From the IMG/VR virus record IMGVR_UViG_3300045988_157791: a stretch of DNA of 64,000 nucleotides; one strand, given 5' to 3'. The notes below the pieces were generated by a model. That model made no database searches, was not told where the DNA came from, and was given only the letters and a program-made list of their open reading frames with translations. Source of the stretch: a virus (lineage: Duplodnaviria > Heunggongvirae > Uroviricota > Caudoviricetes). This document shows positions 7,345 through 59,173 of this stretch, piece after piece (positions within the stretch are counted from its first letter, which is position 1; each line of letters opens with the position of its first letter). A program made the translations under genes and the position numbers.

Positions 7345-7405
7345 AGCCTGCTTCCGTATATATTTAATAAGTTACTTATTATTTATATATACAGATGCAG
7401 GTCTT
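7345..7405. repeat. long hairpin with AT-rich loop (copy 1 of 2)
   Basis: GCCTGCTTCCGTATAT...ATATATACAGATGCAGG inverted repeat; near-identical element at 37366-37425. Confidence 0.5.
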
Positions 7406-8592: not shown

Positions 8593-9254
8593 GAATGGAC
8601 CTCATCATGACTACCATTGTGATATTCCACCTTCACGCGTTCTTTGTAGTGCTTGGTGATCTGCATATCCGGGCGCAGCGCGTTCTTCAGGTCTTCGTGA
8701 GTCGTCGCCACCATTACCGTCGCACCAACCTTTCGAGCGGCACGCTGGAGGTTAGATGCCACAACCTGAGCGGTTACACGGTCTAAAACAGCACCGAACT
8801 CGTCAGCAGCCCACACTTTAGCGCCTGACTCAATCAGTTTGGCAATCTTGAGACGATATTTCTGACCGTCTGACATTTCAGAAGGCTTGCGAACAAACAG
8901 ATATGCATCGTTCAGACCAGCCATAGATAACAATCCAAGCGCATCACTGGTCGTTTTGCCCAACTGATCGATGACGTTAACCTCATTATCGAAGGTAAAA
9001 TCATCGATGGAGGCTACAGACAGCCCTTCATCCTTCATCTGTCGTTGCAACTCGCGCAGCACAACGGATTTGCCGGAACCGGATTGGCCGGTGATGTACA
9101 CCACATCGCCCTGCTTCACTTCCAGCTCCAGATTGTCGTAAAGCGTCCACTCTTTTTCGTCCAGACCAAGCCCGAACGACTCAGCGATTTCCAACGTGCG
9201 CGTGGTTTTATTTACGCGTGTCTGAAACGATACGTTGATGATGTATTTGCTCAT
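8589..9254 (-). CDS. ABC-type ATPase
   Basis: Walker A GQSGSGKS, signature-like MSDGQKYRL, Walker B VWAADEF, H-loop ATTHED; 4-nt overlaps with neighbours. Confidence 0.65.
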   Translation of the reverse strand: MSKYIINVSFQTRVNKTTRTLEIAESFGLGLDEKEWTLYDNLELEVKQGDVVYITGQSGSGKSVVLRELQRQMKDEGLSVASIDDFTFDNEVNVIDQLGKTTSDALGLLSMAGLNDAYLFVRKPSEMSDGQKYRLKIAKLIESGAKVWAADEFGAVLDRVTAQVVASNLQRAARKVGATVMVATTHEDLKNALRPDMQITKHYKERVKVEYHNGSHDEVHS

Positions 9255-9952
9255 GCAGCCATCTCCCCGGAAGAGATCTTCTCCGCATATGCCACAAATG
9301 CGTCTACCCCGCTTTCTCCCGTCATTTCTTCCATGTGGGCAAGCAAATCACCAACAACAATGGCAGAGCCAGCAGGAAGCGTTTTAAAGCCCAATACGTC
9401 GACAACACGTACTTCTTCCGCTGCAACTTCACGACTGATCTCGGTGTGTTCATCCTTCTGTCGTTTAGTTTCTTCGCCAAGATCGATAACTAGCGAGTCG
9501 GTGTCCATTTCTTCTGTCATACTGCCAACGAGAACATTCAACTCACGCTCTTCAAAGCCGAAAACCTCGATATCGTCCAGAACAAGCGACTCAAGCTCTT
9601 TCTGTAGCTTAATTGCATCGTAATCAATGCTGGCAAGTCGGTTATCTTCAAGGCGCTTCGCACGAACCTCGTCATCACTGAGATCATCGCGAACAATAAC
9701 CGGTACGCGCTCAAGTCCAGCAAAAATTGCAGCCTCACGGCGGCCATGACCAGTAATAATTACGTCGTTCTTATCGACCGTAATTGGCTGGTCAAATCCG
9801 CGCTTTTTAATGGCTGCGGCCAGATCTCTGATCTGCTGTTCATCATGCTTTTTGGCATTCATCTCATAGGGAATAAGATCTGCCGGGTCGCGATATACGA
9901 TTTCAAACTTTTTGGTCATTACATACGCTCCTTGTAGTAGTCGACCAGCCAC
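9251..9952 (-). CDS. ParB N-terminal (ParB/Srx) domain protein
   Basis: ITGHGRREAA motif characteristic of ParB-N nuclease/NTPase-like domain. Confidence 0.55.
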   Translation of the reverse strand: MAGRLLQGAYVMTKKFEIVYRDPADLIPYEMNAKKHDEQQIRDLAAAIKKRGFDQPITVDKNDVIITGHGRREAAIFAGLERVPVIVRDDLSDDEVRAKRLEDNRLASIDYDAIKLQKELESLVLDDIEVFGFEERELNVLVGSMTEEMDTDSLVIDLGEETKRQKDEHTEISREVAAEEVRVVDVLGFKTLPAGSAIVVGDLLAHMEEMTGESGVDAFVAYAEKISSGEMAA

Positions 9953-10617
9953 ACCAGAGCCTCACCAGCGTTCTCCATTTCATTACCGGTGTTAATAGCC
10001 TGCTCTTTGATGATGTTTTTTATGGTTTCTGCAACACGATCTGACGCATCGAAAGTTACTTTGAAGCGCATGGTCTGATGTTCCGCACCCACACGTTCGG
10101 TTTTCTCTCGTTTGTCGGTATCGACAGGCTCATCACTACCACGAGACAACGCCTCCAGTGCTTCAAGGTCGATTGCCGCCTCTTTTGCTAAAACCATCGA
10201 GATTTCGTCGTCATACGGGGCGATTTCAGACAGTTGATAGTCAAGTTCTGACTGAATTTCTTCAATGAAGCGTTGCAATGCGATTTGGTCGTCTTCACCG
10301 TATCGCTCGTTGTCCACCAGTGACATCTGTTTAGCTACGACATCGCTAATTTTGCCCACAGAAAGCACCGGAACCGTTGAAATTCCTTGCTCAATAGCGG
10401 CACGCCAGCGATGTTCGCCGCCGAGGATTTCAAAAAATCCATCTTCAAGTTCACGAGCCAAAATTGGCTTAAAAAAGCCCAATTTTTCGATAGAACCTTT
10501 CAGTTTTTCAAAATTCTGCGCACCAACCGAATTGGTGTTCCAGGTATTCGGGCGAAGGTTGGCAACATCAACCTGCAAAATCGTGATTTTTACATCCATT
10601 TTATTGCTACAATCCAC
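9919..10617 (-). CDS. ParB N-terminal (ParB/Srx) domain protein, second paralogous domain
   Basis: ILGGEHRWRAA motif; overlaps start of previous gene. Confidence 0.55.
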   Translation of the reverse strand: MDCSNKMDVKITILQVDVANLRPNTWNTNSVGAQNFEKLKGSIEKLGFFKPILARELEDGFFEILGGEHRWRAAIEQGISTVPVLSVGKISDVVAKQMSLVDNERYGEDDQIALQRFIEEIQSELDYQLSEIAPYDDEISMVLAKEAAIDLEALEALSRGSDEPVDTDKREKTERVGAEHQTMRFKVTFDASDRVAETIKNIIKEQAINTGNEMENAGEALVWLVDYYKERM

Positions 10618-10681
10618 TAAGTAATCACTTACTTATTATAATAGCCAAATAACATACAAAAGGCACTAAGGAAAGAGGTTT

Positions 10682-21400: not shown

Positions 21401-21489
21401 TGCTGGTATGGGAGGGGAGTAGTGGCGATCAACGGATTCTTATAGAAAAGAATCAAATTGTGACCGCCATTATCAATGAGTTGCAACCG

Positions 21490-22059
21490 TTAGTTGTTCA
21501 GATAAACATTTGGAACACGGACGTAGAAGTTCCTGTCGCCGGTAAGTTCCAGAGTAATGTTAATGTCATTACCATTGTCTAGTGTAGCCGTTGCTCTATA
21601 GAACTTATCCGTCACCTTGTCCTCTATTGTCACCTTCATACATTTTGGTGCAGTCGAACCGTTATTCTCTTTCAGAATAGTTGTCACGAGAGGGCAGGCT
21701 GCTTCTTCAAGAGCAACCTCGTCCTTGTGTGGGATGCCGATGAAGATAACCCAAGCCAGCGACGCAACGATTATGATAAATGGCACTCTGCTGCCTTTTG
21801 TAATAGTCGCGCGCTTCCAGAGATAGACAGGCAGGAGGAATACCCCCCATAGAATTGAAGGTGGTTCACAGCCAGACTCCGATAGAGCCATTCTGTCAGC
21901 TACTAACAAACCGATGGTAGTTACACCCCCAATTATAATAGCGTAATTGGTATACTCTTCCGGCGATACTCCAAAGAAGAAAGGCATGAACGCTAGAATC
22001 CACGCATAAATGTTATTCAGAGGTTTTGTTTGTTGGTTCTGGGTTTCCATCACATCCAT
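21490..22059 (-). CDS. putative membrane protein
   Basis: 189 aa with several hydrophobic helices in N-terminal half (AWILAFMPFFFGV, IIIGGVTTIGLLV, ILWGVFLLPVYLW, FIIIVASLAWVIFIG). Confidence 0.45.
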   Translation of the reverse strand: MDVMETQNQQTKPLNNIYAWILAFMPFFFGVSPEEYTNYAIIIGGVTTIGLLVADRMALSESGCEPPSILWGVFLLPVYLWKRATITKGSRVPFIIIVASLAWVIFIGIPHKDEVALEEAACPLVTTILKENNGSTAPKCMKVTIEDKVTDKFYRATATLDNGNDINITLELTGDRNFYVRVPNVYLNN

Positions 22060-22211
22060 TCCATCACATAAAAATCGCGTTTATATATTATCAATTTTCT
22101 CACTTGTATAACCTAAATACGCATCCGTTTATCAATCCACCTTCCACAAACATCAGCTTTAGCTATGAAAAATAACAATCTCAAAGTGAAAACCATTATC
22201 ATAGGAAACGA

Positions 22212-22397
22212 TTAGATGAGATGGTCTAATTCATCATCTATCATTGCTTTAACACTTGAGTCATTAACCCCGTATTGATTTATGAACCGTTTCAGCTCCG
22301 GTGAAAACTGAAGGTAGATATCGTGAGCGTTTTTCACTGTAGGTTCAACGCCACGCATTTCAAGCGCCTTTAGTAGATATGAGTCTTCTTTAAGCAT
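22212..22397 (-). CDS. small hypothetical protein
   Basis: 61 aa ORF downstream of 22434..22742. Confidence 0.3.
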   Translation of the reverse strand: MLKEDSYLLKALEMRGVEPTVKNAHDIYLQFSPELKRFINQYGVNDSSVKAMIDDELDHLI

Positions 22398-22433
22398 AAA
22401 TTCTCCGTTGTCTAGTATGAAGCGATTGCCGGA

Positions 22434-25085: not shown

Positions 25086-26186
25086 ATGAGCGAGTCCAAA
25101 TCGCCGGATGCCCTGAGAGCAATGGTAGCCGGTACGCTGGCTAATTTTCAGCACCCAACCCTGAAACACAACCTGACTACGCTTAAAGCGTTACACCATG
25201 TTGCGTTGATGGATGACACACTGCATGTCGAACTAATCATGCCTTTCGTGTGGAATAAGCCTTTTGAAGACCTGAAAGAGCAATGTAGTGGTGATCTGCT
25301 CCGTATCACTGGCGCAAAGGCTATTGACTGGAAGCTGTCGTACAACATTGCCACGCTTAAGCGCGTCAAAAACCAACCAGGCATTAATGGCGTTAAGAAC
25401 ATTATCGCCGTCAGCTCAGGCAAGGGCGGCGTAGGTAAATCCTCCACGGCGGTAAATCTGGCACTGGCGTTGGCTGCTGAAGGTGCGAAAGTTGGTATTT
25501 TGGATGCCGATATCTATGGTCCATCAATTCCAACCATGCTGGGCGCGGAAAACCAACGTCCAACCTCACCGGACGGTACTCACATGGCACCTATCATGTC
25601 TCATGGCCTGGCAACCAACTCTATTGGTTATCTGGTCACCGACGACAATGCAATGGTGTGGCGTGGACCGATGGCCAGCAAGGCGCTGATGCAGATGTTG
25701 CAGGAAACTCTATGGCCTGATCTGGACTATCTCGTTCTCGATATGCCGCCGGGCACTGGTGATATTCAGTTGACGCTGGCGCAGAACATTCCTGTAACTG
25801 GTGCGGTTGTGGTAACTACGCCGCAAGACATCGCGCTGATCGATGCGAAGAAAGGCATTGTGATGTTCGAAAAAGTCGAAGTGCCGGTACTGGGTATCGT
25901 CGAAAACATGAGTGTGCATATTTGCAGTAACTGCGGTCATCACGAGCCAATTTTTGGCACCGGTGGCGCACAGAAACTGGCCGAGAAATACAACACGCAG
26001 TTGTTAGGCCAAATGCCACTTCATATCTCTCTTCGTGAAGATCTGGATAACGGAACACCAACCGTTATTAGTCGTCCAGATAGCGAATTTACGGCTATTT
26101 ATCGTGACCTCGCAGATCGCGTTGCTGCCCAAATGTATTGGCAAGGTGAAGTAATACCTGGCGAAATCGCATTCCGCGCAGTGTGA
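25086..26186 (+). CDS. apbC: Mrp/ApbC Fe-S cluster carrier ATPase
   Basis: P-loop SGKGGVGKS, CxxC (CSNCGH); divergent from metG as in the enterobacterial chromosome. Confidence 0.9.
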   Translation: MSESKSPDALRAMVAGTLANFQHPTLKHNLTTLKALHHVALMDDTLHVELIMPFVWNKPFEDLKEQCSGDLLRITGAKAIDWKLSYNIATLKRVKNQPGINGVKNIIAVSSGKGGVGKSSTAVNLALALAAEGAKVGILDADIYGPSIPTMLGAENQRPTSPDGTHMAPIMSHGLATNSIGYLVTDDNAMVWRGPMASKALMQMLQETLWPDLDYLVLDMPPGTGDIQLTLAQNIPVTGAVVVTTPQDIALIDAKKGIVMFEKVEVPVLGIVENMSVHICSNCGHHEPIFGTGGAQKLAEKYNTQLLGQMPLHISLREDLDNGTPTVISRPDSEFTAIYRDLADRVAAQMYWQGEVIPGEIAFRAV

Positions 26187-26613: not shown

Positions 26614-26712
26614 AGCGTTTTACCTCAATGATACTGTTTATTCATACAGTATACATTGAAAAGGCATAGTTTGTGAAAGCGGGGTTTGCAGGCGCGCCAC
26701 GCTGGGGGCTAA

Positions 26713-27063
26713 TCACATTGGTGGCGTGAACTTGCCATTCATATATTGCAAAATGCTTGACTCAATTTTTTCATTAAAATCAGAATGATGCTCCTCAAGG
26801 ACAAAGCGCGCCTTATTGTTGCGCACAATAACCTCCGCCAACGGACTAACCAGAGATGTGGAGTTAGAGATTTTCTCGGCGCGCTCTACATCGCTTTTAA
26901 ACGTTACGATGAAGTGCTGGTGGCCTGGTGACCGGCGACACAACATGCGTCGCACTTCCACGGTATCTTCACGGCCTTGAGTATGTACAGGAAAGCTATC
27001 GACCACCGCTGTATTGGTGCGGATTGTCTGCATAGAACGCGTGTTGTCGTGATAGTTAAGCAT
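26713..27063 (-). CDS. hypothetical protein
   Basis: ORF track 26713..27105; start uncertain (ATG 27063 has best RBS). Confidence 0.3.
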   Translation of the reverse strand: MLNYHDNTRSMQTIRTNTAVVDSFPVHTQGREDTVEVRRMLCRRSPGHQHFIVTFKSDVERAEKISNSTSLVSPLAEVIVRNNKARFVLEEHHSDFNEKIESSILQYMNGKFTPPM

Positions 27064-27088
27064 GTTTAATGTCTTCCCCATCTTGCCG

Positions 27089-27340
27089 TTATTTTCTTGG
27101 TGCATCCTCGTTCTGATACACCGGATGGCTTCCTTTTGGCAACTGGAGGCTTAACTGCCGGTAGTGCCGTAACCGTTCCATGAAATAGGTGCGCAGGTTC
27201 TCTGGTTGCTCGCGGGCTACCTGTTCAGCTATGACAGGTATGTTCAATCGCTCTTTGTACGCCACACCGCTGGCAGCCAGATCAACGTTAACCTTATCCC
27301 GTTCTTCCTGACTTTTAGCTGCAATATTCCAGTCGCTCAT
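27089..27340 (-). CDS. DNA polymerase III theta subunit homologue (HolE/Hot-like)
   Basis: [43 protein letters not shown] closely parallels HolE ([43 protein letters not shown], from memory). Confidence 0.65.
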
Positions 27341-27342
27341 AT

Positions 27343-27615
27343 TTAAGGCTCACATTTCCAGATGGTATTCTGAACACCCGAACCGGGCGCAAGATTAGGG
27401 TTAGCGTTCGCGCTATGCTGATATACTGCTTTAGACTTCCCATATTGCTGACAGGCTTTATCTGCGGTTTTTTGCAGGCTATCCAGGCCATACCAACCAT
27501 CTGACTGTATGCTTACCTTTTCACCGTCGTTGTATTGCACCATTGCACACCCAGATATAGCCAGTATCGCGCCGACAATAACGCTTTTCCATAAAACTCT
27601 ATGCAACATATACAA
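27343..27615 (-). CDS. small putative lipoprotein
   Basis: Signal peptide + lipobox AILAISG-C. Confidence 0.4.
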
Positions 27616-27654
27616 AAATCCCCTCTGTGAATTGAGGGGATTTTAGCATGGTGA

Positions 27655-28413
27655 TCAGATATCGGCCTTATTCGGAATTTTATCAGCCACCAGCGGCAAT
27701 AAAGCCTTCGCCATTTCATGAACCAACATGGCATCAATGACGCCTAGCGTATGGACCGGCTTAATCTTTAATGCGGCCTCAAGATAGCCTCTTTCCAGAG
27801 TGGTTTTTACGCTTTTCTTGGGCGATTGTTGGGAACTATCCGGAAAATCCGGATGGTTGCCAGCCAGTCTACGCAAAACGGCCTTAACAGCCTCAATACG
27901 GTCATCATCAACTTTTTCTACAATATTGGAATTTAAATACTTCGAAGCCTTGCTATGCCAATCGCTGGTTTTAGGGTCTTGTCCATCCATCAAACGCCAA
28001 GCTTCAGCGATTAACTCATAGCCAGTAACAGTGGCTTCCTGCGCATCACCAATCAGTTGTGTGATCTCTCTTTCAAGCATGCTTAGAGCGTTAGGCATTG
28101 GTTTTTCTTCCGGTACTACTGGCACTGGAGGGGCGGCGTATACTTCAATTGTCCCATTATCAATAGGCCATTCTCCATCCTTGAGGTAGTCACTTGTGCC
28201 GTCAACTTGCTGTTCTGCAATGTGGAATGCACCTATTGGTTTTGCCTCAAGCGAGGCCAGTGCAATTCGTGCCAGTTTTAGATCTCGTGCAACCATCTCA
28301 ATAACAACTTTGCAGTCCGCACCTTCTTTACTAACACGTCCTTTCAAGTCTTCCAGATAACTAACGCTTTCGCGTGCATGGGAGATTAACTGTTCTTTGG
28401 TTAAGGTGGTCAT
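27655..28413 (-). CDS. hypothetical protein
   Basis: 252 aa ORF, coupled to downstream small gene. Confidence 0.4.
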   Translation of the reverse strand: MTTLTKEQLISHARESVSYLEDLKGRVSKEGADCKVVIEMVARDLKLARIALASLEAKPIGAFHIAEQQVDGTSDYLKDGEWPIDNGTIEVYAAPPVPVVPEEKPMPNALSMLEREITQLIGDAQEATVTGYELIAEAWRLMDGQDPKTSDWHSKASKYLNSNIVEKVDDDRIEAVKAVLRRLAGNHPDFPDSSQQSPKKSVKTTLERGYLEAALKIKPVHTLGVIDAMLVHEMAKALLPLVADKIPNKADI

Positions 28414-28598
28414 TAGGCAGCTCTCTCAACAACAAGCAATTCGTCGTAGTCATAATCCGTTTCGGAACCATCCGTACCGAACAGAGTCACTTTGTCACCT
28501 TCCATCCAGAAAGATTTAACCGCACATCGTTTGCCTTTAGATGTTATGACCACATCACCTTGGGTTACATCTTCAGCGCGAACTTCTACTGTTCTCAT
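28413..28598 (-). CDS. small hypothetical protein
   Basis: ORF track 28413..28634; probable start MRTVEVRAEDV. Confidence 0.3.
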   Translation of the reverse strand: MRTVEVRAEDVTQGDVVITSKGKRCAVKSFWMEGDKVTLFGTDGSETDYDYDELLVVERAA

Positions 28599-29139
28599 AA
28601 TGCTGACCCTCTTTGGTGAAAACGCCTGATGCAATACTGTTTATGATGCTGTCAGTACAGGGAGTAGAAAGCTGGGCATCTCCAGCTATTTTCATGACTT
28701 CGACATTCGCATATCGAATACCGAGGTGTATCAGACCTGCTATACCTGACTTAAGTCGAACATTTTCCATAAACAGATCCTTTTCCCGCTGTTTAACGGT
28801 CTCCAGCTCAACACGCAGTTTCTCAAGCGTTAGGGCCATCTCTACGTTCTCCTGCTCAAGACGTCGGATGTGTTGCTGTCTTTTATCCAGTTCGTCCAGC
28901 AGTGCAATCACATCGGGATCACTATCATCAACTACTGTTACGCGTGATTTTTCATAATGTTCATCTGCAAAAGTACGCCCTATCTTAAAATATCCGTCAT
29001 CACTCTCACCGGAACAGGCATAAACAACATGTGCTCCAGATATGCGCTGTATTGACATTTCCTCGCCACAAACAGAGCATTTAGGCGCTGGTTTTGGTGA
29101 ATAACGTTCACGTAACGTCAGGTAGTAAATCTCATTCAC
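28573..29139 (-). CDS. hypothetical Zn-ribbon/coiled-coil protein
   Basis: CSVCGEE...YACSGE cysteine pairs at N-terminus, central coiled coil. Confidence 0.35.
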   Translation of the reverse strand: MNEIYYLTLRERYSPKPAPKCSVCGEEMSIQRISGAHVVYACSGESDDGYFKIGRTFADEHYEKSRVTVVDDSDPDVIALLDELDKRQQHIRRLEQENVEMALTLEKLRVELETVKQREKDLFMENVRLKSGIAGLIHLGIRYANVEVMKIAGDAQLSTPCTDSIINSIASGVFTKEGQHYENSRSSR

Positions 29140-29591
29140 TGTTTATTTCCTGTACGAAGCTCAGCGGCAAAAGCTACTGCGTGATCATGATGTTCAAGTG
29201 TGTATGCGCACTCAGCAAACATCTCCACGCCCTGCGCACGTACTTCAGCCAGAAAAGCATCGGTGGCTGGAGTCTCCGTTAATTCGCTAACCCAATTATC
29301 TCCGTGTTCCTCGGCACACATCGCATCGAATGCTCGCTCAGATTCTTTCAGGGCTGCATTCTCCGCCGCTAATGCGTCTCTCTGCGCCCGCAACTTCTCA
29401 ATTTCAGCAGCCATGTAGTAACCAACCATAGCGAAGACGGCAAAAGAGTTGTCTGCCTCATCAGGCGACACTGAGGCCATTAGCAGGCCATCGTAAAAAT
29501 CGTGACTCCCATTGGTGATCGCCACCGCATAGGAGTCGTGGTTCTCGCGCTTGTGAATGAGAACTACGGGATTTTCGATTTTGTTACTCAT
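29136..29591 (-). CDS. hypothetical protein
   Basis: 151 aa; start context AGAGAAAAACACATG shared with many genes here. Confidence 0.35.
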   Translation of the reverse strand: MSNKIENPVVLIHKRENHDSYAVAITNGSHDFYDGLLMASVSPDEADNSFAVFAMVGYYMAAEIEKLRAQRDALAAENAALKESERAFDAMCAEEHGDNWVSELTETPATDAFLAEVRAQGVEMFAECAYTLEHHDHAVAFAAELRTGNKQ

Positions 29592-37445: not shown

Positions 37446-38039
37446 CTAAGCAGCCTTCTTTGATGGTCTTTTTTTCCTGATCACATTCGCAGGATCATAC
37501 CCTCCCAGACTTTTCATGACGTCCAAAGGGATCTTGCTTATAGAGTGCCCAGCGTCCTGACAGAATCCTCGAAAAACAACGAGCATACTGCCACCTGGGT
37601 TGATGTTTACTTCTACCTGACCCAGATTGACGTCAGGCTCGACAAACGCTACGCGGCCACCAGACAGAATAATCGTCTCATTCGCACACTCTGTTGCACG
37701 CTCATACCACTTTGTATCTAGGGATTGAGGAATTAGCATCACTGTTGTAACTCCGCGAGCCTGCTCACGTATAGCCGCATCAATCCAGGGGGAGATTTTG
37801 GAGTAGGGTGGATTGAGGAAGGCAATTGTACCTGGCTGTCCCCATTCAGATTTCAAAGCATCACGCTCAACGCCTATGAAATTAGGCAGCTTTGCATTGT
37901 CCTTGTTGCAGGCAACGTCAACATCAAATGTCACTCCAAGATAACGTTGAATGGCAGAAAACAGCCAGTCAGGTGTTCTCCAGAGGTCACGAAGAGAGTT
38001 GTCGCGCTTTCGCTGTTTGATTTTTTCGGCTGCAATCAT
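37446..38039 (-). CDS. phage-type N6-adenine DNA methyltransferase (Dam-like)
   Basis: 197 aa with WRTPDWLF and FLNPPYS motifs. Confidence 0.7.
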   Translation of the reverse strand: MIAAEKIKQRKRDNSLRDLWRTPDWLFSAIQRYLGVTFDVDVACNKDNAKLPNFIGVERDALKSEWGQPGTIAFLNPPYSKISPWIDAAIREQARGVTTVMLIPQSLDTKWYERATECANETIILSGGRVAFVEPDVNLGQVEVNINPGGSMLVVFRGFCQDAGHSISKIPLDVMKSLGGYDPANVIRKKRPSKKAA

Positions 38040-51134: not shown

Positions 51135-52174
51135 AAAATATCCAATTTGCTCAGATCAAATCCGCCGTCAGTATCGTGGACAATCTTGCAATAAGCAGAT
51201 ACCGACTCTCCCAGGCTATCGATTTTGCTGGTTTCAGTTGTGCTGGCTGTACCTTCCATCATTGATGACTTACGGATGAAGTTGCACACGACACCTTTTG
51301 CACCCATTGTTTTGAGGATGTTCTGGTACTTAATGCCTTCTTCATCGTTCTCAATTACGGCGCGGAAACGCACGTAGTTGCCGCGAATTTGGTCATCAGC
51401 AACATCATCTTCCAGGTTAATGAATTTAGGCGCACTGGTTTCGTAGTGACTGAAACTGCCGTCCGGGTTTACGATCATGTAGCCAGCCAGAGATCCAACA
51501 TCTCCCCAATTTTGATGAGTCAGTGCACCGACACTGATAACTCCAGGAATGACCTCTTTGTGGTTGTGGTAATGCCCACTAAGCACGAGACGAAAGCCGA
51601 TATCCTTTAACTCCTGCGCATCGATACCGACGTCAGGCATTGTTGGAATGGCTTTGTTAATGGATGTATGGATAACAACGTCATGATTATCACCTTCTAC
51701 GCTCTTACGTAATGCTTTCAGATCGCTGATAAGCTCCGCATGATTGTTACGCCAGCTAATCAGGTGGACAGTCACATCACCAATTTTTATTGAGTGTGGG
51801 CGCTTGCCACATACGATTACCACGCCGATAGAACTCAGCGATGCTGCTGCGTTGGCGCTATATACTGAATCGTTGGTTTCAAGATCGTGATTACCGGCCA
51901 GCATTACTACTGTCAGATCAAGCTCGTTGATAATCCACTTGTACGTTTCAGTTACGTAATGCAAAACAGAAGGGGACACAGTTCCTCGGACGTGAAATGT
52001 ATCACCGGCAACCAACATGTACTTACAACCGGCCTTCTTCATGGCGATGGCTGCTTCTTTCGTTGCTTCCAACTGTATTTCAAGTCTGGAGTTAAGCCCC
52101 TCAGCGTTCGTCGTGGAGAACGCATCCCATTTGTGGTAGTGGCAGTCAGAAATGACGCCGTATGGCAAAGTCAT
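51089..52174 (-). CDS. sbcD: SbcD/Mre11-like nuclease
   Basis: Calcineurin-like phosphoesterase motifs GDTFH, GNHD, GHYHNH. Confidence 0.75.
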   Translation of the reverse strand: MTLPYGVISDCHYHKWDAFSTTNAEGLNSRLEIQLEATKEAAIAMKKAGCKYMLVAGDTFHVRGTVSPSVLHYVTETYKWIINELDLTVVMLAGNHDLETNDSVYSANAAASLSSIGVVIVCGKRPHSIKIGDVTVHLISWRNNHAELISDLKALRKSVEGDNHDVVIHTSINKAIPTMPDVGIDAQELKDIGFRLVLSGHYHNHKEVIPGVISVGALTHQNWGDVGSLAGYMIVNPDGSFSHYETSAPKFINLEDDVADDQIRGNYVRFRAVIENDEEGIKYQNILKTMGAKGVVCNFIRKSSMMEGTASTTETSKIDSLGESVSAYCKIVHDTDGGFDLSKLDILCQEILTEAESSEAV

Positions 52175-52428
52175 GTGTTTTTCCTTTGTGGTTATTTTGA
52201 TACAAATTCTAAGAGCAATGAGGAGGTAAACAACTATGCATAACGGTATGTTAGGAATGAAACGAGCGCCTTAATATACAAAATTTATAAGTAAGTATAT
52301 ACCTATTTATCGTGGCGCAACTTTGCTTGTCTGTATGACTAAAAATAAGACAGGATCACTGTAGAACGCTATGAGAGCTATTTTGAGGGGGCGTAGATTC
52401 TATCTACGCCAATATACGATCTGGAGGG

Positions 52429-53073
52429 TTACAGCGCGTCAGTGGGCTTTTTACGCGCTGCATTTATGCTTATGACGCCAGCTTTAGGACGTGGATCGAC
52501 AAGGTTCAGTTCTTCTTCGCTATGGTATTCAAGGTCGAACTCACGTTTTACATGTCTGATGTAGATTGCAGTGAGCAGGCTATCTTTGGTCAGGAAGTGT
52601 CCGTAGGATTTGCGGATCACTTCTTCAACCTTCTCGATTTTCTCACCACCCATGCAGAGGTGATTAAACCGGCTGTGTTTCCGCAACATCTCGTCAACTG
52701 GGCCTGAGTAAACCTTGTCTACTTTCCCAAAACGAATGATTTTTCCTGTATCTGCGGATACAAGGCAAATCAGTTTGTCTGGTGATAAACGATCTCGCCA
52801 CGTTACTCCTGAACGGAGTGTGTTGAAGTAGGGCGCATCCAATCCGATGATCGGTTTACGAAATGCGAGCAATGGAACGTACCTGATACAACTATTCAAA
52901 TGAAAGTTCACACCAGCCTTATCAAGTTTAATTCTGGTTTCGTAGATCGGGCACTTCGCCGCTATACCGCAGATATCACAAAGTAACTTCTGCTTATTCA
53001 GGTTGGAATTTGATTCGATAGTGTAGGAGCCGTCCTCAAGACGACGAACCCAGCGCGTGCGTTTTAGATCCAT
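52429..53073 (-). CDS. hypothetical protein adjacent to replication origin
   Basis: 214 aa ORF. Confidence 0.35.
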   Translation of the reverse strand: MDLKRTRWVRRLEDGSYTIESNSNLNKQKLLCDICGIAAKCPIYETRIKLDKAGVNFHLNSCIRYVPLLAFRKPIIGLDAPYFNTLRSGVTWRDRLSPDKLICLVSADTGKIIRFGKVDKVYSGPVDEMLRKHSRFNHLCMGGEKIEKVEEVIRKSYGHFLTKDSLLTAIYIRHVKREFDLEYHSEEELNLVDPRPKAGVISINAARKKPTDAL

Positions 53074-53160
53074 AATCGTTTTTTCAGTAGTTATTGGCCG
53101 ATGCTACGATAACTCATTAGGCATACCTTAATCTGCATTTGCCTGTTTTACTTATCCCAG

Positions 53161-53810
53161 TTATCCACTGGATAGATCCAAATAAGAGATCCCAAGTAAG
53201 ATCAAATAGAAGATCCAAAGAGATCCCCGATCGCCTCTAGCCGTTGCGGTTACTGGTCTGAAAGGGTGTTGCCATCCACTATGGAGAGCAAAGAAACCTC
53301 TGTAGAGAGCTGAATAACCGCTATGAAGAGTAAAACAACCACTCTGGAGAGCTGTATATATCCACTGTAGAGAGTAGAGCACATTGTCTTTTATGGATAA
53401 CTTAATGACTTAATTCTTCATTAACATACTGATATACATAGATATATTTTAAACTCTACTCTTAGTCATGATTCTTATGTCCTTAAATATCCACAGAAGA
53501 GTAGAGTTACCTGTTCTTGAAATCCTCTGATTTTTATCCACAGGCCCGATCCAGTAATTCAGATCACAAAGAGAACCAAAGAGACCCATAAAGACCCAAT
53601 AAGATCCCCGCCCACCTCAAACCGTTGTGCCATCTGCCTTCAGACATGATCGATATCCACTATAGAGAGCGAATAATCCACTATAGGGAGCAAAGCAACC
53701 ACTATAGAGAGGAGAAAAACCACTATAGACGGTAGGATAACCGCTGTGATGAGTGCTACTATCCACTGTAATCAGCAAAGGCCACCAAAGCCGTCGAATA
53801 ACAAGAGACA
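53161..53810 (+). promoter_or_regulatory. plasmid-type replication origin: two GATC clusters, DnaA-box-like sites, two sets of 21-bp-phased iterons
   Basis: Six GATC in 53176-53232 and more at 53548-53651; TTATCCACA at 53534; iterons (A/T)NCCACT(A/G)T(A/G)GAGAG at 53275,53296,53317,53338,53360 and 53655,53676,53698,53719,53740,53761. Confidence 0.7.
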
Positions 53811-53816
53811 TTTGGA

Positions 53817-54872
53817 ATGAGCGAAAACGGCAATAAAAACATAGCGATCGTTGAAGCATTTTCAGAAACAGATAAAAAGACAGGCGAAGTTGTTACGTTG
53901 GTTCCTAACACTAATAACACTGTTCAGCCTGTTGCTTTGATGCGTCTGGGCCTCTTCGTTCCGACGCTGAAATCGACATCCAGAGGAAGAAAGGGGCAAA
54001 TGGTCTCTATGGATGCCTCTGCTGAACTCAAACAGCTGTCTCTGGCAAAAGCCGAAGGGTACGAAGACATAAGGATCTCTGGCCTTCGGCTTGATATGGA
54101 TAACGACTTTAAAACGTGGGTGGGAATAATCCACGCGTTTGCCAAACACAAGGTCGTTGGCGATACTGTCACGTTGCCGTTCGTTGAGTTTGTAAGGCTG
54201 TGTGGCATTCCGACCGCCAGGTCATCAGCGAAGTTACGCAAACGCCTGGACAGTTCGCTAAGCCGTATTGCCACAAATACCATCTCGTTCCGTAGCAAAG
54301 GCTCTGATGAGTTTTACGTAACGCATCTTGTGCAAACGGCAAAATATAGTGTCAAGCACGATACGGTCGAACTGAAAGCAGATCCCAAGATTTTCGAACT
54401 CTACCAGTTCGACAAAAAGGTTCTTCTGCAACTCCGGGCTATAAACGAACTCTCAAGAAAAGAATCCGCTCAGGCGCTTTATACTTTTATTGAAAGTTTG
54501 CCGCCTGATCCGGCACCAATATCACTAGCCCGTTTACGCGCCAGACTTAATCTGACAAGTCGCACTATTACTCAGAATGCGACGGTAAGAAAGGCTATGG
54601 AACAGCTGCGAGAGATAGGATATCTCGATTACACGGAAGTTAAGCGCGGAAACTCGGTCTACTTCGTCATCCACTATAGGCGGCCAAAGTTACGCCAGGC
54701 ACAAATATCAACAAAAATCGATAATGATGAGACGGAATATAGCCTCCCAGATGAGAATCAAGATGACATTATCGACGTTGTGCCTGACGAAAAAGAAGGC
54801 AAAATGGTCATGTTGAGTAAAGAAGAACTGGCGCTTCTCGAAGAGTTGCGCAAGGCAAAGACTCGCAAATAG
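53817..54872 (+). CDS. repA: iteron-binding replication initiator RepA (P1/RepFIB family)
   Basis: [54 protein letters not shown] closely parallel P1-type RepA as recalled; flanked by iterons. Confidence 0.7.
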
Positions 54873-54873
54873 C

Positions 54874-55360
54874 CCAACCACTGTAGTTAGTAGTAAGGCT
54901 CACTATCCACTGTAGTGAGCCTTACTTATATCTGTAATTCGCTATCCACTATAGTGAGTATCGTTATCTGTTGATAACCACTGTAGGCAGTAGAATGCAA
55001 ATACTGAATTAAATGTTAGTGATCACTAACACTGATGAAACAAGGGCTGCGAGGTTAGTGGTCACTGGGTATCTTGGAAAATTTACTGTCTATAGTGGTT
55101 GTTGTCGCCCTCATCTTTGAGCGTATCCACTGTGGCGAGTGGATATCCACTGAAAACAGCAAAGGCTTACTCACCATAGTGGATACCCGCTGGACATCTC
55201 ACTCCAATACTCACCATAGTGGTTGTTTGATGCGAATGAAAGGCTGTCTACTCGCTACAGTGGTTAGCAGATATGTAGGAAGGTTTTGTTACTGACTACA
55301 GTGGATAATGAGCTGGATACGAATGCGGTGAGTAGTCTGCTCACCGCAGTGGTTGGTGCT
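54874..55360. repeat. downstream iteron array (incA-like), both orientations
   Basis: About 12 copies of CCACTGTAG / CCACTATAG or inverse CTATAGTGG / CTACAGTGG. Confidence 0.65.
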
Positions 55361-55361
55361 A

Positions 55362-55574
55362 TTAGTGTATTTTCTTCAACAGACCCCAAAGTGTTCCGGC
55401 TTTTGTAGTCAGTTTTCCTGTTTCTGGATCGTACATACGCCATTCACGCCGCTGGTGGACGATATACCCATCTTCACGTTCCAGACGCTCAAGAATGCCA
55501 GGCTGCTTGAAACCCTTAGCACGCCAGTAGCCGCTTGTTTTCTCGATTTCCAGACCTGCCAGTGTTAATGCCAT
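55362..55574 (-). CDS. small hypothetical protein
   Basis: 70 aa; start overlaps stop of upstream gene. Confidence 0.3.
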   Translation of the reverse strand: MALTLAGLEIEKTSGYWRAKGFKQPGILERLEREDGYIVHQRREWRMYDPETGKLTTKAGTLWGLLKKIH

Positions 55575-55909
55575 TATCCAACCTCCTTGCAGTCATCGAA
55601 AAGGTAGCTTTGCTGAGAAGCGTGAACGCCATAGAAGCCCTTGTATTTGTTGTATACGAAGTGGTCTTCTCCGACGCCGGTTAATTTGCCATTACGATTT
55701 GTGAGATATGGGGATGACAACACTCGATCGTCACGCACAACATAGAACTGGTCGCCGCTGTCTACGACCATCGCTCCATATGGTGCTTTTATGACGTCGG
55801 TAAGAGCGCCATTCTTAACGTCGGCTACAGACATTTCACACTGATAAACAGTGGTGTCGGCCACAACGATCGAAGAAAGGAACAACAGCGCGAATAGGAT
55901 GGCCTTCAT
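55574..55909 (-). CDS. small secreted protein
   Basis: N-terminal signal peptide MKAILFALLFLSSIVVA; 111 aa. Confidence 0.4.
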   Translation of the reverse strand: MKAILFALLFLSSIVVADTTVYQCEMSVADVKNGALTDVIKAPYGAMVVDSGDQFYVVRDDRVLSSPYLTNRNGKLTGVGEDHFVYNKYKGFYGVHASQQSYLFDDCKEVG

Positions 55910-56085
55910 GCTGCCACCTCTTTGATTACATCAAATGCTGAATTAAATACGAGCACGATAGCCAAAGCGTTTATGACTACGTCGTGCACCGGGGAAAAGA
56001 CTTTACGAATGACACCAGTGAAAATGCAGTCGATGACAAAAGCTATTGAAACGATGAGTAACAAGTATTCAATAAAAATCTTCAT
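55906..56085 (-). CDS. small membrane peptide (59 aa)
   Basis: MKIFIEYLLLIVSIAFVIDCIFTGV...; stop overlaps next start (ATGA); below ORF-track cut-off. Confidence 0.3.
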   Translation of the reverse strand: MKIFIEYLLLIVSIAFVIDCIFTGVIRKVFSPVHDVVINALAIVLVFNSAFDVIKEVAA

Positions 56086-56124
56086 GATAGGTAGATACTA
56101 ACTTATATAAATTTTACTGTAAAC

Positions 56125-56400
56125 TCACTCAAAAGTGCTGATGCTTAAAATACGCTCAAGATGTTCGGCATCTTCATCACTGATTTGTTGAGTCTCTTCT
56201 ACGTACCAACAGTTGCCGTTATGCCAACAAACACCATCATCATCAACCATCACTGAATCAGCGTCATGACCTGTATATTCAACGAGAATACGCTGGATCA
56301 GCGCGTCAGTTTCTTCGTCGTTAAGGCCATCGGCTTTGACCATAAAAAGCGGAAACACGTCATAGACAGTGCTGGTAACGATTCGAACTAAAACTCTCAT
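56125..56400 (-). CDS. hypothetical acidic protein
   Basis: 91 aa; start context GGAAAAACACATG. Confidence 0.35.
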   Translation of the reverse strand: MRVLVRIVTSTVYDVFPLFMVKADGLNDEETDALIQRILVEYTGHDADSVMVDDDGVCWHNGNCWYVEETQQISDEDAEHLERILSISTFE

Positions 56401-56455
56401 GTGTTTTTCCTTTTGTGGTTAGTGTTTACTTATTTTGTTAGTTATGAATAGGCGA

Positions 56456-56881
56456 TCAATCTTCTTGTTTAGGGAAAAACTGTTCAATAACTCTGTCAAC
56501 GGCTGTGTCTATATGGAGTAGATGCCACACAACCATATCTTTGCTTCCCATGCCTTGTGTGAATATCACGTCATACTTACGCCATGCGCAGTGGAACCAA
56601 TATGCTGAGTCATCAATTGGTAAATCCTCTCCCGCCTCTTTGAAGTATTTCAGCAGCATTGCCTGCTCTGCCGTTGGCGTTGGACCTATTTCCTGAGCGT
56701 ACATACGGATGAATCGCTGCCAGTCTGTCTCGTCGGGGGTTGGATCTGGTGGGGTCATTTCTGCGATAGCGTTTCGTAGCTGATGCGCCCAATCAGGTTC
56801 AGGAAAGCCTTTTGCTACTTCATCATCAATAACATCCAGAGCCACGTTTGCGGCATCGTAGAGTTTCTTAATAGCTGTCAT
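56456..56881 (-). CDS. hypothetical protein
   Basis: 141 aa; upstream conserved block. Confidence 0.35.
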   Translation of the reverse strand: MTAIKKLYDAANVALDVIDDEVAKGFPEPDWAHQLRNAIAEMTPPDPTPDETDWQRFIRMYAQEIGPTPTAEQAMLLKYFKEAGEDLPIDDSAYWFHCAWRKYDVIFTQGMGSKDMVVWHLLHIDTAVDRVIEQFFPKQED

Positions 56882-58099: not shown

Positions 58100-59173
58100 T
58101 TACTCTTCTACTGACTCGGTGGGGTTGTCTTTTGCTCTTCGGTCGTCGATTGCCTGCAAAGCCGCAATGATTTCAGCCAGTGGCTTCTCCCGATACATCT
58201 CAACGATCTGCGATTTGGTGTATTTCTTGTCACCAATTTCAACTCGCCCGCTGGCGTTCTTTGGCAGGTATCCTTCTTCCAGCATGTACTCGACGAGCGA
58301 TTCGATAACGTCGAGGCCACGAGTAGGATCGAAGTAGAATTTCCAGGTGCATTTGCCATACGGTGGTGCAACTTTGTTTTTGATGCATTCTGCGCCTACG
58401 TCCTGGCCGATCTTCTCTTTACCATCCTTCATCACCGATGCACCAAGACGGATACGTACAGAAGCGTAGAACTTCGGTGAATCTCCACCTGGCGACGTAG
58501 TAGGGTCGCCAAACATTACACCGATTTTTGTGCGAACCTGATTCAAGAAGATGATGCAGGCGTTGTATTTGCGTGCCCACAAAGCCAGAGTAGGGAAGTT
58601 CGCACTCGTCGCACGAGCCAGTGCCGTATTGTCGTTCATGTTTAGCTGATCTTTGTCTTTGGCAGTGCCTTCAGCCATCTTTTCGAACTTCTCGGCTTTG
58701 GAGTTCGGAACCATAGACGCAAGAGAGTCAGCCACGATACAGATAGGTGCTGATTCGGGGATAAGCTCTTCATCACGAACCAATTTAAGTATTGTGCCGA
58801 TCAACTCTACAGAGTCTTCGAAGGTATCTGGCTGCTTGTATACCCACTGACCGTCATCCTCATCTGCGTTCAGGCCATTGGCTACAGCCAGGCCAACGTC
58901 AAAACTGTTTTCATGATCGAGGAATACCGCCAGACCATCTTGTTTTTGAGCGGAGATCATCGCTGCTGTTGCAAGGAACGTTTTCCCTGCACTTGGAGGA
59001 CCGAATACTTCGACGATACGACCACATGGGAAGCCGCCATCGTAACGACCAGAAATAGCTTTGTTTAACGGTGGAAAGCCTGTATCAATCCAATGAGTTA
59101 CTTTCTGAATTTCGTCGTTGCTACCGATTTTCTTTTTCAGAGCAAGTGCCAGTGCGGATTTTCCTTTTGCCAT
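58100..59173 (-). CDS. RecA-family recombinase
   Basis: Walker A GPPSAGKT; IFLNQVRTKIGVMFGDPTTSPGGDSPKFYASVRIRL parallels RecA [36 protein letters not shown]. Confidence 0.7.
   Translation of the reverse strand: MAKGKSALALALKKKIGSNDEIQKVTHWIDTGFPPLNKAISGRYDGGFPCGRIVEVFGPPSAGKTFLATAAMISAQKQDGLAVFLDHENSFDVGLAVANGLNADEDDGQWVYKQPDTFEDSVELIGTILKLVRDEELIPESAPICIVADSLASMVPNSKAEKFEKMAEGTAKDKDQLNMNDNTALARATSANFPTLALWARKYNACIIFLNQVRTKIGVMFGDPTTSPGGDSPKFYASVRIRLGASVMKDGKEKIGQDVGAECIKNKVAPPYGKCTWKFYFDPTRGLDVIESLVEYMLEEGYLPKNASGRVEIGDKKYTKSQIVEMYREKPLAEIIAALQAIDDRRAKDNPTESVEE

Follow-up and report, generated by a model that had tools for sequence, protein, structure and literature searches.

The segment at 53100-55400 of the window (the whole stretch of DNA that was analysed, 64 kb in length) contains a single long open reading frame, repA, together with 24 copies of a 19-bp iteron, AWCCACTRTAGAGAGYARA, located by repeat finding and a position-weight scan. 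Five and six copies form two arrays upstream of repA, one lies within the gene, and twelve are situated downstream. DnaA boxes, AGATCC[AC] heptamers in a row and a GC-rich spacer lead into each of the upstream arrays, and a complete oriR module (DnaA box, heptamers, GC-rich spacer and iterons) is thus present twice in tandem 5' of repA; the repA-distal copy is referred to here as unit 1 and the repA-proximal copy as unit 2. The features are as follows.

53152-53169, plus strand: tandem DnaA-box pair of unit 1, a degenerate TTATCCCAG followed by TTATCCACT, each base of which aligns with the DnaA site annotated in P1 oriR.
53174-53233, unstranded: GATC heptamer row of unit 1, five AGATCC[AC] heptamers plus CGATCG, a homolog of the five Dam sites that are annotated in P1 oriR.
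53274-53378, plus strand: iteron array of unit 1, five 19-bp iterons starting at 53274, 53295, 53316, 53337 and 53360 (spacing 21, 21, 21 and 23 bp).
53381-53533, unstranded: inter-unit spacer, 28% GC compared with 46% for the whole window.
53534-53542, plus strand: DnaA box of unit 2, TTATCCACA, a perfect match to the consensus, which occurs in exact form at just two places in the 64 kb.
53547-53608, unstranded: heptamer row of unit 2, with GATC kept in three of six heptamers and the other three reading GAACC or GACCC.
53655-53779, plus strand: iteron array of unit 2, directly 5' of repA, six iterons starting at 53655, 53676, 53697, 53718, 53739 and 53761 (spacing 21, 21, 21, 21 and 22 bp).
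53817-54872, plus strand: repA, 351 amino acids, a predicted iteron-binding initiator with WH1 and WH2 domains.
54669-54687, plus strand: iteron-like site inside repA, ATCCACTATAGGCGGCCAA.
54876-55354, both strands: downstream incA-like array, 12 iterons in the order four plus, one minus, two plus, five minus.
55015-55065, plus strand: two copies of GTTAGTGRTCAC in a gap of the downstream array, the first of them within a 14-bp palindrome, TTAGTGATCACTAA.

RepA has the two domains of the Rep_3 (WH1-WH2) plasmid initiators, each scoring above the Pfam cut-off: Rep3_N (WH1, PF01051) with an E-value of 1.3e-10 and 42.2 bits (cut-off 22.4), and Rep3_C (WH2, PF21205) with 22.6 bits (cut-off 21.1). 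As in other members of this group, cognate direct iterons adjoin the gene. An earlier note on this DNA, made from the sequence alone, had described the protein as P1-like, and alignment bears this out, with 47.5% identity to P1/P7 RepA over residues 40-293 (E-value 1e-71); RepA is also ~44.5% identical to proteins deposited as 'RepFIB replication protein A'. The Pfam matches and the identity to P1 together settle the family to which RepA belongs. A PDB sequence search with RepA at E-values up to 1 returned no match, and therefore provides no structural anchor by sequence, and an NCBIfam search gave no meaningful model match.

The iteron core WCCACTRTAG has 13 exact matches in the 64 kb, and all 13 fall within 53100-55400. 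The copy inside repA was outside the training set of the position-weight matrix, and its score of 16.8 is above that of every site outside the replicon. It is found at offset +852 in all five lineages, but because it overlaps the codons for an invariant H-x-R-x-P-K motif, this conservation may merely reflect coding constraint. The downstream array starts 4 bp past the repA stop codon and has six iterons on each strand, in agreement with the approximately 12 bidirectional iterons noted earlier; the relatives have 13-14 iterons in this position, with an unchanged orientation pattern. This array is presumed to control copy number through titration and handcuffing. The second copy of GTTAGTGRTCAC in the gap and its flanks (GAGGTTAGTGGTCACTGGGT) are almost invariant in five lineages, in surroundings that are ~65% identical in the Citrobacter plasmid. 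The palindrome TTAGTGATCACTAA was considered as a dispersed operator and rejected, as it has one exact copy and its matches with up to three mismatches are at chance level (5 compared with 3.0 expected). A permissive Rfam scan of 52000-56500 gave no match, and thus no sign of antisense-RNA control.

The left part of unit 1 closely follows the P1 origin. Its second DnaA box, TTATCCACT, which starts at 53161 and departs from the consensus at one position, is exactly the second box of P1, and in the relatives its place is taken by TTATTCACA or TTATTCACT. With six GATC sites in a span of 59 bp (53175-53232), all but one belonging to AGATCC[AC] heptamers, the heptamer row is more GATC-dense than any other part of the 64-kb window; under a Poisson model, at least six GATC sites per 70 bp have a probability of 9e-7, with ~0.06 such occurrences expected across the whole window. 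By analogy with P1, this row is presumed to be a Dam/SeqA-controlled unwinding core. The offsets of the unit 1 iterons from repA are the same in pMT1, pHCM2 and Escherichia coli S56 plasmid B.

In unit 2 the relatives carry TTATACACA at the DnaA-box offset, -283 from the repA start. A further GATC is present at 53648, beyond the heptamer row, and the loss of GATC from three of the six heptamers is common to all of the lineages compared. The row is nonetheless 94% identical to pMT1/pHCM2, the best-conserved non-coding block in the region, and the proximal iterons and leader are 89-94% identical. The earlier description of two units, each with a GATC cluster followed by iterons at 21-bp phasing, thus holds for the position of both units and for their five and six iterons, but half of the GATC cluster has decayed in unit 2. 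The unit 2 iterons are presumed to include the repA promoter and operator by analogy with P1 incC; the promoter role is taken from P1 because a scan of 53700-53816 for promoter consensus found no convincing sigma-70 -35/-10 pair.

The earlier note had also placed DnaA-box-like sites in an AT-rich spacer between the units. Two one-mismatch sites are indeed present there (53392-53400 on the minus strand and 53487-53495 on the plus strand), and the spacer is AT-rich, but the strongest boxes lie at the left edge of each unit. Overall, four DnaA boxes with no more than one mismatch are present in 720 bp, compared with 0.71 expected (P ~0.006). The best candidate in a promoter/terminator scan is a promoter-like site at 53421-53448 within the spacer, and it is poorly conserved in pMT1/pHCM2. 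A role for the AT-rich spacer as a conserved unwinding element was rejected: it is the least conserved block, with 63-66% identity to pMT1/pHCM2, and the corresponding spacers of relatives are 40-45% GC (40-42% in pMT1, pHCM2 and SSU5), such that the AT-richness is lineage-specific.

The replicon is one that has already been catalogued, as type IncFIB(pLF82-PhagePlasmid), and the element is a published phage-plasmid. Segment 53100-55400 is 99.9% identical at the nucleotide level over 2,301 bp to Escherichia phage Cyrano (the same element as plasmid pLF82), and the 2.3-kb segment is at least 99% identical to ~100 plasmid records, in which E. coli and E. albertii predominate. These matching plasmids are roughly 107 kb in length (range ~100-125 kb), non-mobilizable, and IncFIB by MOB-suite, a label that reflects sequence typing and not an incompatibility test. 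Membership of the classical IncFIB group (RepFIB of F/P307) would entail incompatibility with RepFIB plasmids through shared iteron specificity. More distant matches include Salmonella phage SSU5 (83.6% identity) and, at ~81%, Yersinia pestis pMT1, Salmonella Typhi pHCM2, and plasmids of Enterobacter, Kluyvera and Citrobacter. A comparison with 5,426 complete E. coli genomes gave 225 matching places for the segment, every one of them on a plasmid and none chromosomal.

Beyond the replicon, the whole 64-kb window is colinear with Cyrano/pLF82 in reverse orientation at 96-99% identity. It spans the start of the Cyrano record, which fits a circular or permuted genome, and it therefore also includes the terminase, portal and capsid genes, in support of the phage-plasmid assignment proposed previously. 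Near-identity of repA to that of pLF82 and the SSU5-like colinearity place the element in both the IncFIB(pLF82-PhagePlasmid) type and the SSU5 family. Cyrano is an SSU5-like phage-plasmid that has a copy number of 5.5 per cell and makes virions (PMC9928086), and phage-plasmids mostly type as IncFIB, these being chiefly members of the SSU5 supercommunity (PMC7969092). The PlasmidFinder types IncFIB(pLF82-PhagePlasmid) and IncFIB(H89-PhagePlasmid) are in routine use, and the replicon type also appears in a 2025 preprint. The region thus almost certainly maintains a pLF82/Cyrano-type phage-plasmid of the SSU5 family in its plasmid (prophage) state, as a theta-type replicon under iteron control that is homologous to oriR-repA-incA of P1. 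The earlier note was right in every main point, although the discovery value is small given that routine typing databases already list the replicon and the phage-plasmid has already been published. The RepA/iteron cassette nevertheless has practical importance, in that it sets which SSU5-like phage-plasmids coexist, and some of these carry CTX-M genes.

The flanks of repA contain no ParA/ParB pair, as had been pointed out before, and the downstream neighbors are small genes with no assigned function. The nearest ParB_N genes are a pair of ParB_N-domain genes at 9251-10599 of the window, and a small ParA of Cyrano (CYRAN_28) is located ~31 kb from repA, outside of the window. The ATPase gene at 25086-26186, which is annotated as MinD in Cyrano, was considered as a partition ParA and rejected, since PF10609 (the NUBPL family of iron-transfer NTPases) outscores every other Pfam model by a wide margin, at 342 bits, and the protein is of the Mrp/NUBPL type. 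The element also encodes its own replisome genes, including Pol III alpha, helicase, primase and ligase. A predicted Dam-family methyltransferase is encoded at 37446-38039 (PF05869, 131.8 bits).

The tandem arrangement of the origin module is shared among this group. An upstream intergenic region of ~745 bp holds both units here as well as in pMT1, pHCM2, E. coli S56 plasmid B and a Citrobacter plasmid, with the layout at the same offsets in each, and the tandem module is also conserved in SSU5; P1, the Klebsiella pKPHS1 type and the E. coli H89 type have one unit within at most ~320 bp upstream of repA. In a neighbor-joining tree the unit 1 copies cluster together, as do the unit 2 copies, and the two clusters have parallel topologies, which indicates a single duplication prior to the split of these lineages. 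The DnaA boxes, heptamers and iterons of both units are 75-94% identical to those of pMT1/pHCM2, compared with 63-66% for the spacer between them, and both units are under constraint as judged from these alignments. We found no description of an oriR-module duplication in the searchable full-text literature, and an earlier description elsewhere is possible.

How the replicon is likely to operate can be outlined from the biology of P1 (Chattoraj, Austin, Abeles, Brendler, Wickner). RepA monomers would occupy the 19-bp iterons, whose phasing corresponds to two helical turns, and host DnaA would bind the flanking boxes; RepA and DnaA together would then open the adjacent GATC-heptamer region and permit loading of the host helicase. 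Dam methylation and sequestration of the GATC row by SeqA would be expected to restrict re-initiation, and the repA promoter would be repressed by RepA bound at the repA-proximal iterons. The 12 downstream iterons, probably together with the non-firing upstream array, would keep copy number low through RepA titration and pairing of origins (handcuffing), and partition would be provided from distant loci. A P1-type replicon depends on Dam methylation, SeqA, DnaA and the DnaK/DnaJ/GrpE chaperones, and of these requirements the GATC row and the DnaA boxes are the sequence signatures visible here.

That these repeats arose by chance or by misassembly, and that the open reading frame does not encode an initiator, has a negligible probability, finds nothing in its favor and is refuted by the Pfam domains, which exceed curated cut-offs, the confinement of all exact core matches to 2.3 kb of the 64 kb, and the occurrence of the same architecture in independent records from five genera. 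Another alternative is that the element is really a virulent phage, in which the replicon is either an inactive relic or serves lytic replication only. The presence of the element's own replisome genes would fit this, and SSU5 was originally isolated as a lytic phage. We regard it as very improbable, as Cyrano is maintained at several copies per cell (PMC9928086), the replicon is present in hundreds of complete circular plasmid records and no chromosomal ones, and the functional blocks have all been kept even in lineages that are 68% identical.

The roles of the two units are less easily assigned. In our preferred reading there is a division of labor, in which unit 1 would be the Dam-controlled origin with the ancestral signature, and unit 2 would act mainly as the repA operator and an additional control array. 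This is favored by the closer resemblance of unit 1 to the single units of P1 and the Klebsiella type (56-57% identity, compared with 38-45% for unit 2), and by its retention of six GATC sites where unit 2 has GATC in only three of six heptamers. It is also quite possible, if somewhat short of an even chance, that the roles are reversed or that both units fire, with unit 2 as the working origin or one of dual origins and unit 1 as a RepA-titrating or handcuffing array or a back-up origin. Unit 2 sits where P1, the Klebsiella type and the H89 type have their single oriR, and it has a perfect DnaA box, unlike unit 1, as well as near-consensus iterons and the most strongly conserved heptamer row; on these grounds unit 2 could be active as an origin, perhaps with a weaker dependence on Dam. 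In P1, however, the origin depends critically on methylated GATC heptamers, and half of the unit 2 heptamers are without GATC in all lineages; furthermore, unit 1 retains the full ancestral signature and is conserved between lineages to the same extent as unit 2.

Returning to the division of labor, it is one of two forms that a functional duplication could take, namely a sub-functionalized pair (unit 1 as origin, unit 2 as operator and control array) or a dual origin, in which a Dam/SeqA-gated unit 1 would be accompanied by a GATC-depleted unit 2 firing without sequestration. The broader proposal, that the tandem oriR duplication is both previously uncharacterized and functional in either of these forms, is put forward tentatively, and we consider it rather unlikely. 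If it is correct, the duplication would confer a distinct copy-number or cell-cycle behavior on this phage-plasmid lineage. The conserved tandem origin with asymmetric GATC loss poses a small, testable question concerning the way in which iteron replicons acquire additional control arrays or a second origin in evolution.

The oriR-repA-incA architecture recognized in the earlier note corresponds, one feature after another, to the P1 replicon as annotated. The P1 record contains oriR (a DnaA site, five Dam sites and five incC iterons), repA, nine incA iterons and then parA-parB-parS. The P1-type origin core of DnaA boxes, GATC heptamers, GC-rich spacer and ~21-bp iterons is present here, as are a RepA homologous to that of P1 and a bidirectional downstream control array. 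Across the left half of unit 1, every base can be aligned with the P1 stretch that carries its DnaA boxes and GATC heptamers, and the P1 incC iterons are spaced at 21, 21, 21 and 22 bp, differing only in the last interval from unit 1 (21, 21, 21 and 23 bp). The P1 incA array begins at the repA stop codon with three iterons in the plus orientation followed by those in the minus orientation, and the switch in orientation is common to both systems. There are four principal differences. P1 has a single origin unit, whereas the core is present twice here; the iteron is AWCCACTRTAGAGAG here and GATGTGTGCTGGAGGG in P1, from which the binding specificities of the two RepA proteins are predicted to differ; P1 RepA lacks the C-terminal tail of ~58 residues seen here; and parA-parB-parS directly follows incA in P1, whereas no partition genes adjoin the downstream array in this element.

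The closest known system is Cyrano/pLF82, whose replicon is essentially without difference; the two RepA proteins are 100% identical and the flanking genes are shared. Outside the replicon, Cyrano differs in two variable segments, and its recA carries a 1,263-bp insertion that is missing from the window. At a greater distance are pMT1/pFra, pHCM2 and SSU5, with ~81-84% nucleotide identity and RepA proteins 91-92% identical (91% for SSU5). Their layout is identical, with 5 + 6 upstream iterons, the internal site at +852 and a bidirectional downstream array, differing in the presence of 13-14 downstream iterons rather than 12. Lindler and colleagues reportedly described, in 1998, a 2,450-bp putative origin region in pMT1, with a RepA similar to those of RepFIB, RepHI1B, P1 and P7 and with partition genes ~36 kb from the origin; pMT1 presumably also carries an additional parABS of the P1 type.

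The H89 type (pECOH89) and the Klebsiella pKPHS1 type occupy the same place in the same backbone, with identical neighboring proteins (WP_000364573.1 and WP_001229345.1) and a homologous DnaA-box and GATC segment. Their RepA proteins are ~46-51% identical to the one described here, their iterons are different (TATGCTGTCAGCGGT), and they have a single origin unit. The pECOH89 RepA has been reported as 48% similar to pLF82 RepA (PMC3999498). The same SSU5-family backbone occurs both with the tandem-origin cassette of the pLF82 type and, in the H89 type, with a swapped single-origin cassette.

The spacer between the two tandem origin units, the repA coding sequence and the downstream iteron array each contain a further candidate element:

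Sites within the replicon
53421-53448, + strand: sigma-70-like site (TTAACA, 16-nt spacer, TATATT; 10/12 matches)
54669-54687: iteron-like site within the repA coding sequence
55015-55065: two GTTAGTGRTCAC motifs, 39 bp apart

Of all sites in the region, the one at 53421-53448 best resembles a sigma-70 promoter; it is located within the AT-rich inter-unit spacer and is directed at unit 2 and repA. This site, like the low GC content of the spacer (28%), is confined to the lineage of pLF82, the plasmid form of Escherichia phage Cyrano. The iteron-like site has a constant offset of +852 in all five lineages examined (the window, pMT1, pHCM2, E. coli S56 plasmid B and a Citrobacter plasmid), near the point where P1 RepA terminates. 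Because it overlaps the codons of the invariant H-x-R-x-P-K residues, coding constraint is inseparable here from function as a DNA site. The GTTAGTGRTCAC pair occupies the interval of the downstream array at which iteron orientation changes; the first copy is within a perfect 14-bp palindrome containing a GATC, and the second is nearly invariant, including in the Citrobacter relative.

Elsewhere in the window are the following genes:

Genes outside the replicon
9251-10599, - strand: two neighbouring ParB_N-domain genes
25086-26186, + strand: Mrp/NUBPL-type P-loop ATPase, annotated 'MinD' in Cyrano
37446-38039, - strand: phage-type Dam DNA adenine methyltransferase of putative specificity (PF05869, E 2.5e-38)
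58100-59173, - strand: recA open reading frame, 357 aa

The ParB_N genes are without an adjoining ParA, and the near-palindrome TAAGTAATCACTTA directly upstream of them (10618-10631) shows no excess over chance expectation. The Mrp/NUBPL-type ATPase is probably not a partition protein. The predicted methyltransferase, encoded by the element itself, could be relevant to an origin based on GATC heptamers.

Relative to Cyrano, in which recA is annotated at 2,340 bp, the window lacks 1,263 bp at 58982-58984. The extra Cyrano segment falls inside its recA, is an in-frame insertion of ~421 aa and is probably an intein or homing element. By megablast, two segments, 21479-22433 and 26661-29356, match Cyrano barely or not at all, apart from two short patches (87–93% identical); they represent variable, accessory parts of the phage-plasmid. 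At 7363/7364 the window continues without a break over the two ends of the linear record for Cyrano, linking its position 1 to position 108379, which fits either a circularly permuted genome or a plasmid form that is circular.

Two distinct replicon cassettes occupy one phage-plasmid backbone, as seen when window 53074-55361 is compared with L012 (NZ_CP080257.1) and L011. Identical proteins, WP_000364573.1 and WP_001229345.1, flank both, and this identity around differing cassettes points to replicon swapping through recombination, either within the conserved flanking sequence or within the DnaA/GATC segment. The alternative cassette, of the H89/Klebsiella type found in pECOH89 and in Klebsiella pKPHS1-type replicons of SSU5-family phage-plasmids, differs from that of the window in encoding a RepA only ~46–51% identical, in having TATGCTGTCAGCGGT as its iterons, and in containing a single origin unit.
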